Below, in pieces: positions 11,449 to 45,100 of a DNA stretch of 45,100 nt; position 1 is the stretch's first letter; every line of letters begins with the position of its first letter. Below the pieces are notes generated by a model. That model ran no database searches. It worked only from the letters and a program-made list of their open reading frames with translations, and had not been told where the DNA came from. A program made the position numbers and the translations under genes. The DNA is taken from the NCBI GenBank assembly GCA_948482865.1, contig CAOMHR010000001.1:1-45100 (forward strand), in the 5' to 3' direction. The stretch comes from Christensenellaceae bacterium (lineage in GTDB: Bacteria; Bacillota; Clostridia; Christensenellales; Borkfalkiaceae).

Positions 11449-11539
11449 GCGGAAGTACCCAAGTGGCTCAAGGGGCTCCCCTGCTAAGGGAGTAGTACGG
11501 GAAACCGTAGCAAGGGTTCAAATCCCTTCTTCCGCGCCA
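11449..11539 (+). tRNA. tRNA-Ser: tRNA-Ser (anticodon GCU), class II with long variable arm, CCA encoded
   Basis: Acceptor GCGGAAG / CTTCCGC plus G plus CCA. Anticodon stem CTCCC/GGGAG with loop CT-GCT-AA. Long extra arm GTACGGGAAACCGTAG. T-arm AGGGTTCAAATCCCT. Confidence 0.9.
11477..11531 (+). repeat. attL core (inside the intact tRNA-Ser)
   Basis: TCCCCTGCTAAGGGAGTAGTACGGGAAACCGTAGCAAGGGTTCAAATCCCTTCTT is identical to 45046-45100. The identity probably continues to the tRNA 3' end, but the window stops. Confidence 0.9.
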
Positions 11540-19678: not shown

Positions 19679-20335
19679 ATGGAAAAGAAAGCTTTTATTA
19701 TTCAAATTTGTTTGTGTTCACTATTACTAATTTTCTCCGTTGTAACTTTTGCATTTACTTTAAATTTTTGCTTGCCTATTATACAAAGATATATAGAAAC
19801 AACAAATTCTTCATTAGAATATCTTTCTTATATTAAAAAGAGCATTACCATTCATACAATTTACTGGGCAAGTTCTGGAATTGCCACTTTAATATTAATT
19901 GTGCAGTTAATTTATCAAATTACAATTTTTAAAAGATGTAGCACATTAAACAAAAATCAACAAATAACTATCTTTTCTTTTTTAAGTTTTACTTCCATTC
20001 TTTTTTTAGCAATATTTATAGCTGCTTCATATTACACTGCATTTACGAGCGACATTTTTAAAGGGGTATCCGACAAAACATTTATAAACAATGAATTGAA
20101 AGCTACATACCTTAGTATAGCTATTGCTGGATTATCACTAATAATTGTTGTATTTACAGCTCTATCTTTTATAGTAAGTTCTACCCAAAAAGGTAAAAAA
20201 CTACTTGAACAGCTACAAATTAAAAAAAGTTCTAATAATAAATCAAAAAAATTATCTAATACTGAACGATTAATAAAATTAGAATCAAACATTAAGGAGT
20301 TACAAGCCGAATTAGAAGAATTGAAAAAGGATTAA
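19679..20335 (+). CDS. Island protein D: 4-TM membrane protein with C-terminal coiled coil (218 aa)
   Basis: ORF track. Four hydrophobic helices, then a basic linker (KKSSNNKSKK) and ERLIKLESNIKELQAELEELKKD. It lies on the opposite strand to all flanking structural genes and is AT-rich. Confidence 0.7.
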   Translation: MEKKAFIIQICLCSLLLIFSVVTFAFTLNFCLPIIQRYIETTNSSLEYLSYIKKSITIHTIYWASSGIATLILIVQLIYQITIFKRCSTLNKNQQITIFSFLSFTSILFLAIFIAASYYTAFTSDIFKGVSDKTFINNELKATYLSIAIAGLSLIIVVFTALSFIVSSTQKGKKLLEQLQIKKSSNNKSKKLSNTERLIKLESNIKELQAELEELKKD

Positions 20336-39374: not shown

Positions 39375-40031
39375 TTATTCTTTAATTTTCTTAAAAAAAT
39401 TTTCGAACACAGTGCTACCGAACTGTCCCTTTGTTATTTCAATAATTTCAGCAACCGTATACTTTTCTTTCTTTTCTTTAATGCTATCTAAAAACTGTTG
39501 TGTCCCCGCGCGGCAAGCACCGGTTATGACTCTATACGCTATCACTGCTTCGTTATATGTAAGCTCGCTTTCCAGCATTAAATGGCTGTACTGTTCGGCT
39601 CCGCGATCTTCTGATTTTTTGAACGCTATATCGAGAACTCCTTCTTTAAAAGTTCTGCAATGCGCATAATATTCTCCATCACAAACTACATTCTTGCCTT
39701 TTATCTTTCCGACATAATAGGTGTATTGTCCCATTGTTTTACGCACTTTTATGTGGGTAAGAATACCATCACAGAAAAGATAATTTCCTTCTTTGTAATC
39801 ACCGTCTTTTAAGTGGCGACAGTTTCGATTCGTTATCTGCGTGCCACGAAGGTAAAGCGAACCGCCTACTGTAAGGTTCTCGGGTAAACTCGTTATCTGC
39901 GTGCCGCTAAGGTCGAGCCAACCGCCTACTGTAAGGTTCTCGGGTAAACTCGTTATCTGCGTGCCACGAAGGTAAAGCGAACCGCCGTTTTCTTCCATCA
40001 TTTTTTCAAGTTCTTGCTTTGTGTAATTCAT
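39375..40031 (-). CDS. Protein with three 20-aa LRR-like repeats (GTQITSLPENLTVGGxLxLx) and a conserved-looking C-terminal domain (218 aa)
   Basis: ORF track. AAGGAG precedes ATG 40031. The repeats are near-identical at the DNA level. Confidence 0.6.
   Translation of the reverse strand: MNYTKQELEKMMEENGGSLYLRGTQITSLPENLTVGGWLDLSGTQITSLPENLTVGGSLYLRGTQITNRNCRHLKDGDYKEGNYLFCDGILTHIKVRKTMGQYTYYVGKIKGKNVVCDGEYYAHCRTFKEGVLDIAFKKSEDRGAEQYSHLMLESELTYNEAVIAYRVITGACRAGTQQFLDSIKEKKEKYTVAEIIEITKGQFGSTVFENFFKKIKE
39841..39996 (-). repeat. 2.6 tandem copies of a 60-bp unit (coding, inside 39375..40031)
   Basis: The unit CGTTATCTGCGTGCCACGAAGGTAAAGCGAACCGCCTACTGTAAGGTTCTCGGGTAAACT is at 39841-39900, repeated at 39901-39960 with a few substitutions. 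A partial third copy starts at 39961. Confidence 0.85.
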
Positions 40032-40782: not shown

Positions 40783-40974
40783 TTAATAAGATTTGCTGGT
40801 GTAATTGTTGCTCTTCTCGCTTTTTTGTTTAGAAATTAGTTTTTCATTTTTTTTATCGTAATGTCTATCGACTAACATATTAATTAAGATCGACAACGAC
40901 ATTCCTAAACTTAAACATCCAAGGCAAAAACTTATCCCGCACAGCACTAATGTTGTTATTGAAACTGTTATCAT
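40783..40974 (-). CDS. Small membrane protein (63 aa, one or two TM helices then basic tail)
   Basis: ORF track. MITVSITTLVLCGISFCLGCLSLGMSLSILINMLV. GGAG-rich SD. Confidence 0.5.
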   Translation of the reverse strand: MITVSITTLVLCGISFCLGCLSLGMSLSILINMLVDRHYDKKNEKLISKQKSEKSNNYTSKSY

Positions 40975-41154
40975 TTTTTCTCCTGCTCTCCTTAGTCGGG
41001 GGCTTTTTTTGTTGTTAAATTTTTAAATGCATTGTTTCACAAAAATAGTTTGGTTTTGTATAGTTTTACTTGATTTTGTTTAGTTTTAAAAATCTGTGCG
41101 CTCACAATATATTGTGGTTATAAAATGTTTCACACTATATATTGTGTTTTTATC

Positions 41155-41183
41155 TTGACTTTTACAAACAACCGTTTTATAAT
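41155..41183 (+). promoter_or_regulatory. Near-consensus promoter TTGACT-N17-TATAAT for the small plus-strand gene
   Basis: TTGACT 41155-41160 and TATAAT 41178-41183. Two palindromes lie upstream: CACAATATATTGTG (41103-41116, perfect) and CACACTATATATTGTG (41131-41146, 7 of 8 pairs). Confidence 0.55.
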
Positions 41184-41231
41184 ATAACTATCAATTAGAA
41201 TTAATTGAAATATTAAAAGGAGAACAAAAAA

Positions 41232-41360
41232 ATGAACACTAAACAGACATCTAAGCCCGTTGCTTCTACTGCAAGCAAAGTTCTGAAAGACGGTCGTTAC
41301 AGCCCTGCATCCAAAACTTGTGCTGGTTCCGCTCTTTCTCAAACAAAGAAAGGTAAATAA
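41232..41360 (+). CDS. Small basic Ser/Thr/Lys-rich protein (42 aa), convergent with cro
   Basis: Hand translation: MNTKQTSKPVASTASKVLKDGRYSPASKTCAGSALSQTKKGK*. AAAGGAG lies 8 nt upstream. Below the ORF-track size cutoff. Confidence 0.5.
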   Translation: MNTKQTSKPVASTASKVLKDGRYSPASKTCAGSALSQTKKGK

Positions 41361-41477: not shown

Positions 41478-41678
41478 CTAAATTAAGTCTGCAATGCTAC
41501 ACTCTAACGCATCGGCTAATTTGTCGAGCGTTTTCTTTTTAGGAAAACTAACACCCAACTCACACATTGAAAGTGCATTTTGAGAAACGCCTATCTTCTT
41601 TGCAAGTTCTCCTTGAGTAAGTCCTTTCTCTACTCTTTTAAGTTTTAACTTCATCATAGGCTCATATTTTCTTTGCAC
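41478..41678 (-). CDS. cro: Cro-like XRE-family HTH regulator (66 aa)
   Basis: ORF track. KGLTQGELAKKIGVSQNALSMCELGVSFPKKKTLDKLADAL. GTG start with AGGAG 8 nt upstream. Divergent from the cI-like gene. Confidence 0.7.
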   Translation of the reverse strand: MQRKYEPMMKLKLKRVEKGLTQGELAKKIGVSQNALSMCELGVSFPKKKTLDKLADALECSIADLI

Positions 41679-41747
41679 AATTTTATCTCCTTTGCCCTAT
41701 GGGGCTTTTTTTGTTGTTAAACTCCTTTATTGGAGTTTTATGGTTTG

Positions 41748-41776
41748 ATTATAACTCCAAGTTTGGCGTTTGTCAA
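41748..41776 (-). promoter_or_regulatory. Early lytic promoter (PR-like), consensus TTGACA-N17-TATAAT
   Basis: Minus strand: TTGACA (41776-41771), 17-nt spacer, TATAAT (41753-41748). The -35 lies inside the 21-mer 41770-41790. Confidence 0.6.
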
Positions 41777-41795
41777 CTATTTTTTGCAAATTGTA

Positions 41796-41823
41796 TTGCA
41801 ATTTTTGGAGTTTTTTTTATAAT
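41796..41823 (+). promoter_or_regulatory. Repressor promoter (PRM-like) TTGCAA-N16-TATAAT
   Basis: TTGCAA 41796-41801 (inside the palindrome ATTGCAAT 41795-41802) and TATAAT 41818-41823. Back-to-back with the PR-like promoter. Confidence 0.5.
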
Positions 41824-41858
41824 TAAAGCAAGTTGTTAAGCAAAATAAGGAGTTTATT

Positions 41859-42446: not shown

Positions 42447-42470
42447 TTAATATTTCACTAAGGAGAAAAT

Positions 42471-43742
42471 ATGGGTAGGCGAAGTTTTATTTCAGTAACA
42501 GCCATTAACCGTCTTATTTCAGCATCAAGGCGGCGTGACGCAGAACAGCGCAGACTGGATTTAATAAATAGCCAAAAAAGTAACGTAAAAGAACTGAACC
42601 CACAGTTCTTTTTAAAGAGTGTAGATTTCAACGAAAACACTCGCGTAACTAAAATTGAGATAGAACAACAACAAAATTATCGCACAATAGAAAGATACGT
42701 AACCCAAAATTATGTACGCTATCCTATTTATTCCGGTTGGAAACTTCGGACAAAAACAATCAACAAAACAATAAAACTTAATAATGCACAACTTGAAAAT
42801 TTGAACAAAAACGAAGATAAAATAATTGCACTGCTTTCCGACCAAATAGTTTTAGCACTAAATAATAAAGCGCTTCACCCTTCTTGGTTTATACAAAAAT
42901 ATTTAACCGAAGAATATGGTGAAGACATTAAATATTTTGAAAGTCAGAAAAAAGCGTTTTATGCCAATACTATAGAAAAACAAAATAAAAACAAAAAAAT
43001 TATAGACCAAAATAAAATCAATATTGAAAATATTTCCATTAATCTCAAACAAAAGAAAGAGAAATTAGCTAAATTAAATTTAAAAATACAAAAAATTGAA
43101 AATGCAAAAAAATCTGTAATTTTAAGTATTATTACTTTTTTTATTTATAGTTACTATAAATCAAATCGACGCAAGAAAAAGTTAGTAATTAAACAAAATG
43201 AGTTGCAGACTTGTATTGGTAAACTTACTAAATCAATTTTGGATAAACAAGAAAGCATTAACAGTTTAAAGCAAGAAAATCAAAACTTGGAACAAACCTA
43301 TTTAAGAAAAAAAGCAGATATAGAAATTCTTAAAGAAGAAAAAACACGACAATTTCGCTCTAATTCAAATAAAATAAAACCTTTGCCAACTAATTACTCA
43401 AAAAATAACAATTTCACCCCATTAAATGTTTTATGCGGTTTAGATTATGAAAAAATTGTCGGTTGCTATATTGTTCACAACAAAGTAAATGATAAATATT
43501 ATATAGGGCAATCAAAAGATGTAATAAAGCGTTTACGCCAACATTTCAAAGGTACTGTGCCAAATAATATTATTTTTGCAGAAGACTATTTTGCTACACT
43601 ACCTGAAAATAGAGAAAACCTTTTTGAAATAAAAATAATTCCTTGCGAGACTAAGGATGAACTTGACCGCACCGAAAAACAATTAATAGAAAATTATGAT
43701 ACTTTCAATTCAGGTTATAACGGAACTAATGGAAACACATAA
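42471..43742 (+). CDS. Coiled-coil / single-TM protein with C-terminal GIY-YIG nuclease domain (423 aa), in the lysogeny operon
   Basis: ORF track. AAGGAG lies 5 nt before the ATG, only 24 nt after the cI stop. Central hydrophobic VILSIITFFIYSYY flanked by Lys/Arg. C-terminal GCYIVHNKVNDKYYIGQSKDVIKRLRQH...TEKQLIENY...GYNGTNGN (GIY..YIG..R..H..E..N). Confidence 0.7.
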   Translation: MGRRSFISVTAINRLISASRRRDAEQRRLDLINSQKSNVKELNPQFFLKSVDFNENTRVTKIEIEQQQNYRTIERYVTQNYVRYPIYSGWKLRTKTINKTIKLNNAQLENLNKNEDKIIALLSDQIVLALNNKALHPSWFIQKYLTEEYGEDIKYFESQKKAFYANTIEKQNKNKKIIDQNKINIENISINLKQKKEKLAKLNLKIQKIENAKKSVILSIITFFIYSYYKSNRRKKKLVIKQNELQTCIGKLTKSILDKQESINSLKQENQNLEQTYLRKKADIEILKEEKTRQFRSNSNKIKPLPTNYSKNNNFTPLNVLCGLDYEKIVGCYIVHNKVNDKYYIGQSKDVIKRLRQHFKGTVPNNIIFAEDYFATLPENRENLFEIKIIPCETKDELDRTEKQLIENYDTFNSGYNGTNGNT

Positions 43743-43830
43743 ATGCCCAGTTATTCTATAAAGAAAACAAAAGGCAACACCACAGTTGATGTGTGGTTTA
43801 GATAAAAATTGGAAAGATAAATAAATTATT

Positions 43831-45045: not shown

Positions 45046-45100
45046 TCCCCTGCTAAGGGAGTAGTACGGGAAACCGTAGCAAGGGTTCAAATCCCTTCTT
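45046..45100 (+). repeat. attR core: displaced 3' half of tRNA-Ser (from the anticodon loop onward), truncated by the window end
   Basis: Identical to 11477-11531. The upstream sequence (..AACACTTGTTTG) does not match the tRNA 5' half. Confidence 0.9.

Follow-up and report, generated by a model that had tools for sequence, protein, structure and literature searches.

Three single-gene defence systems with a GIY-YIG nuclease domain have been reported, namely, PD-T4-3, PD-lambda-1, and Uzume (UzuA; Millman 2022) (bioRxiv 10.1101/2024.10.26.620412). PD-lambda-1 of Escherichia coli (Vassallo 2022, PMC9519451) is now named SNIPE (Saxton 2026, Nature, PMC13190303). SNIPE consists of a membrane anchor, a central coiled-coil/DUF4041 region, and a C-terminal GIY-YIG domain on which its defence depends (PMC13190303; PMC9519451). 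It is constitutively membrane-bound, associates with the tape measure protein, and cuts phage DNA during injection, and its action is that of a direct defence rather than of abortive infection (PMC13190303). Prophage induction is unaffected by SNIPE, and SNIPE without its transmembrane (TM) segment is nucleoid-bound and toxic; about 66% of its homologues have an N-terminal TM segment, and the one third or so that do not have one carry other membrane-targeting modules (PMC13190303). Here we describe a gene for a predicted coiled-coil GIY-YIG nuclease in a prophage of a Christensenellaceae bacterium. The gene lies between the repressor gene and the integrase gene in a stretch of 45,100 nucleotides (nt), positions 1 to 45,100 of contig CAOMHR010000001.1 (GenBank assembly GCA_948482865.1), which is referred to below as the window. 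We propose that it may well code for a single-gene anti-phage (superinfection-immunity) nuclease whose gene temperate phages carry as cargo of their lysogeny module, and by analogy with SNIPE its most likely role is to shield the lysogen from other phages. The reasons for this proposal are that the gene recurs on the repressor strand, that it is AT-rich, patchily distributed and without a partner gene, that candidate defence genes are occasionally found next to it, that its active site is conserved, and that its effector domain is interchangeable.

The length of the open reading frame (ORF), 1272 nt, and its more than 290 full-length homologues argue that it is a real gene. These homologues, which were found by protein search, are 40-71% identical to the window protein from end to end and almost all of them have 415-427 residues (aa). 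The first-pass annotation of the window, which was made from the DNA letters alone, had placed the ORF at 42471-43742, with a hairpin-free gap of 24 nt after the repressor gene, a strong Shine-Dalgarno sequence in front of it, and the integrase gene 88 nt further on, and all of this was verified. The Shine-Dalgarno sequence, AAGGAG, is at 42460-42465, 5 nt 5' of the ATG, and the 88 nt are counted from the stop codon of the nuclease gene to the start of the integrase gene. No terminator or hairpin was found on the plus strand between the repressor gene and the nuclease gene by scanning, and the predicted RNA fold of the spacer has just -4 kcal/mol. The gene shares the lysogeny strand with the repressor gene, apart from the replication and lytic genes. 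From the terminator-free 24-nt spacer, the Shine-Dalgarno sequence, and the promoter-like site upstream of the repressor gene we infer that the nuclease gene is transcribed together with the repressor gene in lysogens.

The genomic context was surveyed at about 35 distinct loci. In eight lineages the nuclease gene belongs to a lysogeny module and shares the strand of the repressor and integrase genes; seven of these lineages are other than that of the window. The order repressor-gene-integrase is found in the window and at loci L016, L022, L044, and L085/86, the order gene-repressor-integrase at L001/2/42 and L003/4, and at L026 the gene is followed by the integrase gene at the end of the contig; L081-84 are the window prophage in other samples. 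The presence of the gene in the lysogeny module of several unrelated prophages fits an exclusion or defence cargo gene ('moron'). The first-pass annotation had called this the Rex position, and as a positional statement it is sound. The rexAB genes are the lysogeny-module exclusion genes of phage lambda, and Rex is a two-component membrane-depolarising system with no sequence or structural relationship to the family protein. The ltp gene of Streptococcus thermophilus phage TP-J34 is an exclusion gene in the lysogeny module that is transcribed in the prophage, and the surface lipoprotein Ltp acts from outside the membrane to block DNA injection (PMC3952083). The window gene is like ltp in its lysogeny-module position, but the two proteins have no sequence or structural kinship and the family protein is a predicted nuclease.

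The L085 and L086 prophages, which are both inserted beside clpB, have an identical nuclease, P0010, after the same 219-aa S24 repressor (L085, 1853-5043; L086, 1629-4819), whereas their integrases differ (333 and 379 aa). Since they share the nuclease and the repressor and not the integrase, the repressor-nuclease unit seems to travel jointly while the integrase is exchanged.

The nuclease gene is more AT-rich than its 10-kb flanks in all 36 loci compared, with a mean G+C content of 0.29 against 0.40. In the window the nuclease gene has a G+C content of 28%, against the 42% of the prophage and the 47% of the host flank. Across the examined loci the family gene has no conserved partner beside it. 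Some of the neighbours are candidate defence genes. Solitary copies adjoin the gene for an AAA_14-DUF4143 protein that matches the PADLOC model PDC-S01 (E 5e-111) and the gene for a PIN_12 protein. In two unrelated loci the family gene is directly followed by a gene for a MazG-like protein (106 aa) and a gene for an SLFN-g3/NERD helicase (about 630-645 aa), at 6438-8692 in L007 and at 2050-4259 in L015. The L007 helicase has weak PADLOC matches to PDC-S41, Nhi, and AbiO, and this pair of genes may form a recurrent defence neighbourhood. Further copies adjoin the borders of mobile elements.

At L077 and L078 (5001-8525) the gene of an identical protein, P0028, with a rubrerythrin gene is present in two genomes, beside a serine-recombinase element in one and a tyrosine-integrase/MobL element in the other. 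The site next to P0028 looks like an integration hot spot.

When the profile of the N-terminal domain (N-domain) was searched against 1.84 billion representative proteins only 229 clusters were retrieved. Nearly all of them share the same architecture and the shorter entries are probably fragments. The carriers are metagenome-assembled genomes (MAGs) of Clostridia, Bacilli, Christensenella, Oscillospiraceae, Acutalibacteraceae, Selenomonadales, and Defluviitaleaceae, and a few viral contigs. No full-length member was found among 50,697 deposited phage genomes and 72,556 plasmids, where the nuclease domain alone matches, and at the DNA level a search of deposited phages and plasmids for close relatives gave no more than the tRNA-Ser part. 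A search of the published literature on GIY-YIG proteins with coiled coils, in prophages, in superinfection exclusion, and in Lactococcus abortive infection yielded no description of this family, and thus it appears to be undescribed so far; its clusters, about 230 in number, are at present labelled 'hypothetical' or 'GIY-YIG nuclease family protein'. In two MAGs of Mycoplasmoidaceae/Mycoplasmataceae (L035 and L036) the matches, with 30-36% identity, are split over two or three short ORFs. These copies may be decaying, or the splitting may be an artefact of translation table 11, which reads UGA as stop, because UGA codes for Trp in Mycoplasma.

The C-terminal domain of the window protein matches PF01541 over residues 331-417 with a score of 42.8 bits against a cut-off of 22.6 (E 6.6e-11), and all 117 aligned full-length homologues match this family as well. 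In the alignment of these homologues Y333, G346, R354, H358, E402, and N417 are invariant and Y344 is conserved in at least 90%. The fold of the domain resembles that of the catalytic domain of I-TevI (1ln0/1mk0; Foldseek probability 1.0, target TM-score 0.65-0.69, E about 2e-3), and a sequence profile search of the PDB matched solely I-TevI (E 2e-7) and the GIY-YIG domains of UvrC. The PHROGs, PADLOC, and NCBIfam libraries reach only the nuclease part, through homing-endonuclease models (PHROG 7168/5123/314 and PADLOC HEase). The domain is a predicted nuclease of the I-TevI type in which all the catalytic-type residues are conserved. The C-terminal GIY-YIG domain that the first-pass annotation had recognised is thus borne out by the Pfam score, the active-site residues, and the fold. 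The peptides that it quoted were all located, KKSVILSIITFFIYSYYKSNRRKKK at residues 213-237, CYIVHNKVNDKYYIGQS at 332-348, KRLRQH at 353-358, TEKQLIENY at 401-409, and GYNGTNGN at 415-422, and so was the AT-rich stretch with G+C at 11 of the 60 positions 43021-43080.

The remainder of the protein, residues 1-330, has no match in Pfam, PHROGs, NCBIfam, or PADLOC. An AlphaFold2 model, which was run on the alignment of the 117 homologues (mean predicted local distance difference test (pLDDT) 90.3, predicted template modelling score (pTM) 0.73), consists of a basic N-terminal helix, the conserved, family-specific N-domain with its β-sheet and small helices, a coiled-coil stalk of two antiparallel arms joined by a tip, a conserved linker, and the nuclease domain (Table 1). 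The mean net charge across the family is +5.4 for residues 1-40, the region in whose place, or ahead of which, variants have TM helices, and +6.1 for residues 41-104, so that the N-terminal 104 residues together carry about +11. Modelled separately, the N-domain has a pLDDT of 90.8, and its Foldseek searches gave noise only (best E 0.02 against the PDB and 0.004 against BFVD, TM-score below 0.32). No Pfam family was found for the N-domain in the window protein or in the 117 homologues; a weak hit to Phage_FRD3 (18 bits, cut-off 28) was disregarded. The full-length model matched only I-TevI and generic antiparallel coiled-coil arms (SMC, Rad50, and HP0958) in the PDB. Thus the N-terminal part, for which the first-pass annotation had named a Foldseek comparison, has no significant structural match and the stalk resembles coiled coils in general.

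The long coiled coil that the annotation had described is present in the model as two long helices. In the model they form an antiparallel hairpin of about 70 residues per arm that would be roughly 10 nm long. The arms are variable in sequence, with a column majority of about 35%, and yet their lengths are almost fixed, as 161 of 183 homologues have a distance of 92 aa from W139 to S231 and 174 of 183 one of 71 aa from R234 to L305. The tip has a hydrophobic and aromatic core of 14 residues, VILSIITFFIYSYY (residues 216-229, 43116-43157), with Lys/Arg on both sides. Its motif is approximately K-S-[IVL]-x-[FLI]-x-S-I-[FIL]-T-[LF]-G-I-Y-x-Y-L-x-S-x-K-R-K, in which T is conserved in 75%, G in 68%, I in 76%, Y in 77%, S231 in 92%, and R234 in 86%, and it has a weak, sub-threshold similarity to DUF4234. 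The first-pass annotation had taken this segment for a central hydrophobic membrane helix and had overlooked that the hydrophobic stretch has merely 14 residues. We reject a classical TM helix here because the segment has neither the length nor the hydrophobicity for one, its Kyte-Doolittle 19-residue mean being about 1.0-1.3 in almost every homologue against the usual TM threshold of 1.6, and because it is at the turn of the hairpin in the AlphaFold2 model. The homologue P0120 does not have the hydrophobic tip segment at all. The annotation had read the gene as coding for a membrane-tethered or oligomerising nuclease co-transcribed with the repressor, plausibly for abortive infection or superinfection exclusion. 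What stands of this interpretation is the GIY-YIG domain, the coiled coil, the repressor strand without a terminator, and the lysogeny position, which recurs, and what does not stand is the classical TM helix.

Variants of the family bear on the question of the membrane. One or two N-terminal TM helices (Kyte-Doolittle 2.2-3.5) precede the β-domain in 19 of the 220 complete representatives. The tip motif is deleted or not hydrophobic in 22 representatives, and TM helices are present in 12 of the 22 tip-less members against 7 of the 197 tip-bearing ones (Fisher p 1.3e-9, uncorrected for relatedness). On a rough neighbour-joining tree TM helices together with a lost tip are found at about seven separate places, and by parsimony on this tree the TM state must have changed at least 10 times and the tip state at least 14 times. 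The composition of the tip is of the interfacial type, that is, aromatic and aliphatic residues between Lys/Arg clusters. Membrane association of the family is plausible because of this repeated gain of TM helices, its concentration in the tip-less members, the tip composition, and the precedent of SNIPE. Four representatives, P0171, P0138, P0201, and P0243, retain the N-domain and the stalk and have exchanged the GIY-YIG domain. In P0171 (852 aa) it is replaced by an RNase_T-type exonuclease (E 1.1e-7) and about 350 further residues; the C-terminal domains of the other three are helical and have no assignment. Such a swap of the GIY-YIG domain for other C-terminal domains is a modularity typical of defence proteins.

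A protein on a plasmid of Lactococcus formosensis (NZ_CP141726.1; WP_338998216.1, 234 aa; L072, 3581-4285), whose gene is beside those of a recombinase and IS1216, has a TM helix at its N-terminus, followed by a charged coiled coil and a GIY-YIG domain of the same subtype. It shares with the family the signature GQSK[DN]V.KRL..HF ... GYN..GN, 42% identity over the domain, and the charged coiled coil ahead of it, and differs in its length of 234 aa, its N-terminal TM helix, and having neither the β-domain nor the hairpin tip. It may be an example of a smaller class of GIY-YIG proteins with a membrane anchor in Lactococcus. Similar GIY-YIG matches were seen on Bacillus plasmids.

Among the described systems SNIPE is the closest functional precedent. 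SNIPE/DUF4041 and UzuA were compared with the family by library hidden Markov model (HMM) scans only, and by these scans the family is not demonstrably a SNIPE member. Like SNIPE, the family has a single gene without an immunity partner, an elongated protein that has a coiled coil at its centre and a C-terminal GIY-YIG domain, a membrane anchor in part of the members, a basic module that could bind DNA, and carriage by mobile elements. The SNIPE mode, in which DNA is cut at injection and the induced prophage is spared, would suit a gene borne by a prophage. The family differs from SNIPE in that the window protein has no N-terminal TM segment, which only the 19 representatives mentioned above have, in that its β-domain has no known relative, and in that its stalk is an antiparallel hairpin of locked length whose tip is conserved. 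All the 117 members match PF01541 with their nuclease domain, and 20 of them have a weak match to T5orf172. Lastly, the hosts are Firmicutes and not E. coli, and the function of the family is a proposed one.

Uzume and the family may be distantly related, but membership is not established by the scans. The PADLOC UzuA model PDLC03975 is matched by 91 of the 117 members with E below 0.1 (best 1.7e-8), and UzuA is likewise a single gene with a GIY-YIG domain after about 150 residues that align with arm 2 of the stalk and the linker. The alignment of the members, however, runs only from arm 2 through the linker to the first GIY motif (approximately model positions 17-191 of 277), and since the model is about 150 positions shorter than the window protein it cannot cover the full architecture of N-domain plus hairpin. 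The window protein has no match to PD-T4-3 in the PADLOC scan, and the PDC-S14 matches that were examined extend only over approximately residues 331-375, the GIY motif region. The first-pass annotation did not recognise the architecture as a named system, and this agrees with PADLOC, in which the window protein has no significant match to any named defence system. Two other kinds of system were considered and rejected. In the window no ORF of methyltransferase size adjoins the nuclease gene, as would be needed for restriction-modification with an Eco29kI-type GIY-YIG enzyme, and no partner ORF is kept across loci, as would be needed for a toxin-antitoxin pair.

If the protein is a membrane-associated anti-phage nuclease, it could work as follows. 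The gene would be expressed together with the repressor gene in the lysogen. The coiled coil would fold back and so bring the N-domain and the nuclease together as one 'head' at the stalk's base, and the tip of the stalk, or the N-terminal TM helices of the variants, would hold the protein at the cytoplasmic membrane. This tethering would keep the nuclease off the nucleoid, so that no immunity partner would be needed. The basic N-terminal module might bind DNA or an injection-associated protein, and the nuclease would cut incoming phage DNA at or near its entry, as SNIPE does in E. coli. Cutting at this stage would spare the resident prophage on induction. A bolder form of this proposal, which we regard as doubtful, is that the family is an evolutionarily independent counterpart, in Gram-positive hosts (Firmicutes), of the 'spatial' discrimination between self and non-self by SNIPE, in which the β-domain would sense DNA or injection, the length-locked 10-nm stalk would have its tip docked at or in the membrane, and only entering DNA would be cut.

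Several observations weigh against this membrane-associated anti-phage reading or parts of it. About three quarters of the examined loci are outside prophage lysogeny modules and have many housekeeping neighbours. The family is known solely from uncultured MAGs, and so no host-phage pair is at hand. Neither DUF4041 nor the PADLOC PD-Lambda-1 model has a match to the window protein at E <=1, and neither is among the 25 families listed for the 117 members in the Pfam and PADLOC scans. The match of the window protein to UzuA (E 0.032, 11.9 bits, residues 158-362 against positions 29-189 of 277) is insignificant and is mainly through the coiled coil, whose composition may inflate scores. The maximum Kyte-Doolittle 19-residue mean anywhere in the window protein is 1.06, and hence it has no classical TM segment. 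The specific conserved residues of the tip motif (T, G, I, Y, S, and R) equally suit a dimerisation 'hook', and the inverse pattern of TM helices and tip could mean that confinement to the membrane replaces dimerisation. The geometry of anchoring would also differ, as a head anchored through the tip would be about 10 nm from the membrane and one anchored at the N-terminus would be at the membrane. Because the tip could be a dimerisation hook, we have moderate confidence in a role in defence and less in a SNIPE-like mechanism at the injection stage.

The main rival explanation is abortive infection (Abi), in which an auto-inhibited nuclease would sense a phage protein or nucleic acid through its N-domain and would degrade host and phage DNA so that the cell dies before phage release. 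It cannot be told apart from direct exclusion by sequence, and the evidence of position, cargo character, and modularity is the same for both. No immunity partner is present, the exchange of the effector for RNase_T is typical of sensor-effector Abi proteins, and in the AlphaFold2 model the hairpin places the N-domain beside the nuclease, a geometry that would suit auto-inhibition. Nevertheless, we consider Abi rather unlikely, since the sequence indicates no trigger, the recurrent gain of TM helices and the conserved tip would be superfluous for a cytoplasmic sensor, and the studied single-gene GIY-YIG analogue, SNIPE, is a direct defence system (PMC13190303).

The solitary, AT-rich copies, many of which are between unrelated housekeeping genes, raise the question whether the gene is a selfish one, that is, a free-standing GIY-YIG homing endonuclease that cuts alleles without the gene and is copied into them by recombinational repair. 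In sequence the nuclease domain does match homing endonucleases best (I-TevI and the PHROG and PADLOC models given above), and the family shares with I-TevI and the Seg enzymes the fold and the motifs of the catalytic domain. In those enzymes, however, the GIY-YIG domain is N-terminal and not C-terminal, and library scans of the window protein and the 117 members found no NUMOD, helix-turn-helix (HTH), or zinc-finger DNA-binding module; the score to TIGR01453 is 28.9 against a cut-off of 56.05 and covers the catalytic part only. Neither is the gene in an intron or a split gene. The first-pass annotation had considered flanking by the halves of a target gene, and this was not what was found, as the neighbours are intact, the repressor and integrase genes in the window as well as the housekeeping genes beside the solitary copies (mnmA/glyA/rarA, rpsI, ppdK, cca, smpB, and spoIIE/degV). 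Moreover, the insertion sites are mutually unrelated, the family is missing from the 50,697 phage genomes except for the nuclease domain alone, and the membrane anchors or non-GIY-YIG C-termini of the variants would make no sense in a homing enzyme. We know of no homing endonuclease with a length-locked coiled coil of 140 residues, and this also counts against homing, which we take to be unlikely. The other explanation that we rate as low is a nuclease of the phage life cycle or of housekeeping without a role in immunity, which might degrade host DNA, act in recombination or repair, or bridge DNA by dimerising at its tip as SMC/Rad50 proteins do. The hairpin with its conserved tip does resemble the arm and hook of SMC/Rad50, with Foldseek covering the arms only (E 0.02-0.06), and the basic N-terminal module could bind DNA. 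On the other hand, neither the window protein nor its homologues match an ATPase family or a Walker-type motif, so that the ABC-ATPase head is missing, the gene is on the lysogeny strand and away from the replication and lytic genes, many solitary chromosomal copies are without any phage, and the patchy distribution and AT-richness are those of accessory cargo.

If the gene is an anti-phage nuclease as we propose, gut Firmicutes and their prophages, from which few defence systems have been tested, would have a second lineage of membrane-associated GIY-YIG defence nucleases that is distinct in structure, and the SNIPE logic of cutting DNA where it enters would have evolved more than once. The basic N-terminal β-domain would join the repertoire of defence sensors or adaptors in a compact system of one gene with an unusually strict constraint on the length of its coiled coil. 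About 230 protein clusters would gain a testable role, and the slot between cI and int would be marked as a site for defence cargo. If spatial discrimination applied as well, temperate phages could exclude rivals with their own induction unharmed, the N-domain would stand for a new class of fold among sensors of phage entry, and the stalk would serve as a molecular ruler.

The coordinates of the features in the window are given in Table 1.

Table 1. Features of the nuclease gene and its surroundings in the window (residues are those of the encoded protein; AF2, AlphaFold2)
Feature	Position	Strand	Evidence or remark
Cro-like HTH_3 gene, divergent from the repressor gene, lytic side of the switch	41478..41678	-	Pfam, E 3e-14
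Promoter-like TTGACA-17-TATAAT (12/12) before the Cro-like gene	41776-41748	-	Consensus scan
Promoter-like TTGCAA-16-TATAAT (10/12) upstream of the repressor operon	41796..41823	+	Consensus match only
cI/LexA-like repressor, 195 aa	41859..42446	+	Pfam Peptidase_S24 PF00717, E 3.6e-27; HTH_3 PF01381, E 2.7e-9
Spacer between the repressor and nuclease genes, 24 nt	42447..42470	+	Sequence
Coiled-coil GIY-YIG gene, 423 aa	42471..43742	+	1272-nt ORF including stop; ORF list, homologues, AF2
Basic N-terminal helix (MGRRS..., helix 9-34), aa 1-40	42471..42590	+	AF2, charge analysis
N-domain, aa 41-137	42591..42881	+	AF2: five-stranded antiparallel β-sheet 45-102 and small helices 105-130
Coiled-coil arm 1, aa 138-211	42882..43103	+	AF2 helix; sequence-variable, length-invariant
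Hairpin tip, aa 212-231	43104..43163	+	AF2 break with short helices 216-221 and 225-229
Coiled-coil arm 2, aa 232-300, antiparallel to arm 1	43164..43370	+	AF2 helix
Conserved linker PL...F.PLK...G.EYEKIIG, aa 301-330	43371..43460	+	Alignment
GIY-YIG nuclease domain, aa 331-417	43461..43721	+	Pfam PF01541, Foldseek, PDB profile search
Small 6-bp hairpin, weak terminator-like, between the nuclease gene and int	43779..43797		Scan calls the - strand
Tyrosine integrase, 344 aa	43831..44865	+	Pfam Phage_integrase, E 1.6e-15
attR, 55-nt exact copy of the 3' part of tRNA-Ser(GCT)	45046..45100	+	Direct repeat D2, ARAGORN

The two divergent promoter-like sites found by the consensus scan are both within the switch region at 41679-41858. 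The weak hairpin after the nuclease gene had escaped the first-pass annotation; on the plus strand its RNA would fold as CCACAC/GUGUGG followed by UUUAGAU. The partner copy of attR is at 11477-11531, inside the tRNA-Ser(GCT) gene at 11449-11539, and the match is exact on both sides. These two 55-nt att copies bound a prophage of about 33.6 kb, and the end of the window is the end of attR. The prophage holds at least one recognisable structural gene, that of a minor capsid protein. The relatives of the window integrase that were found have only 34-38% identity, which is too distant for a comparison with an empty site.

Three other ORFs of the prophage were noted. The ORF at 19679-20335 on the plus strand (218 aa, no Pfam match) is the sole sizeable plus-strand ORF inside the block of late genes on the minus strand, and it may be a second cargo gene. 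On the lytic-strand side, a 63-aa ORF at 40783-40974 (minus strand), which has no Pfam match and is in an AT-rich stretch (G+C 0.26-0.30 at approximately 40800-41250), codes for a protein whose N-terminal half is strongly hydrophobic (MITVSITTLVLCGISFCLGCLSLGMSLSILINMLV...). The ORF at 39375..40031 on the minus strand, which codes for a 218-aa early-region protein without a Pfam match, contains three tandem 60-nt repeats at 39830-40009, of which the second and third copies are 92% and 70% identical to the first, and these repeats encode GG(S/W)L(Y/D)L(R/S)GTQITSLPENLTV units.

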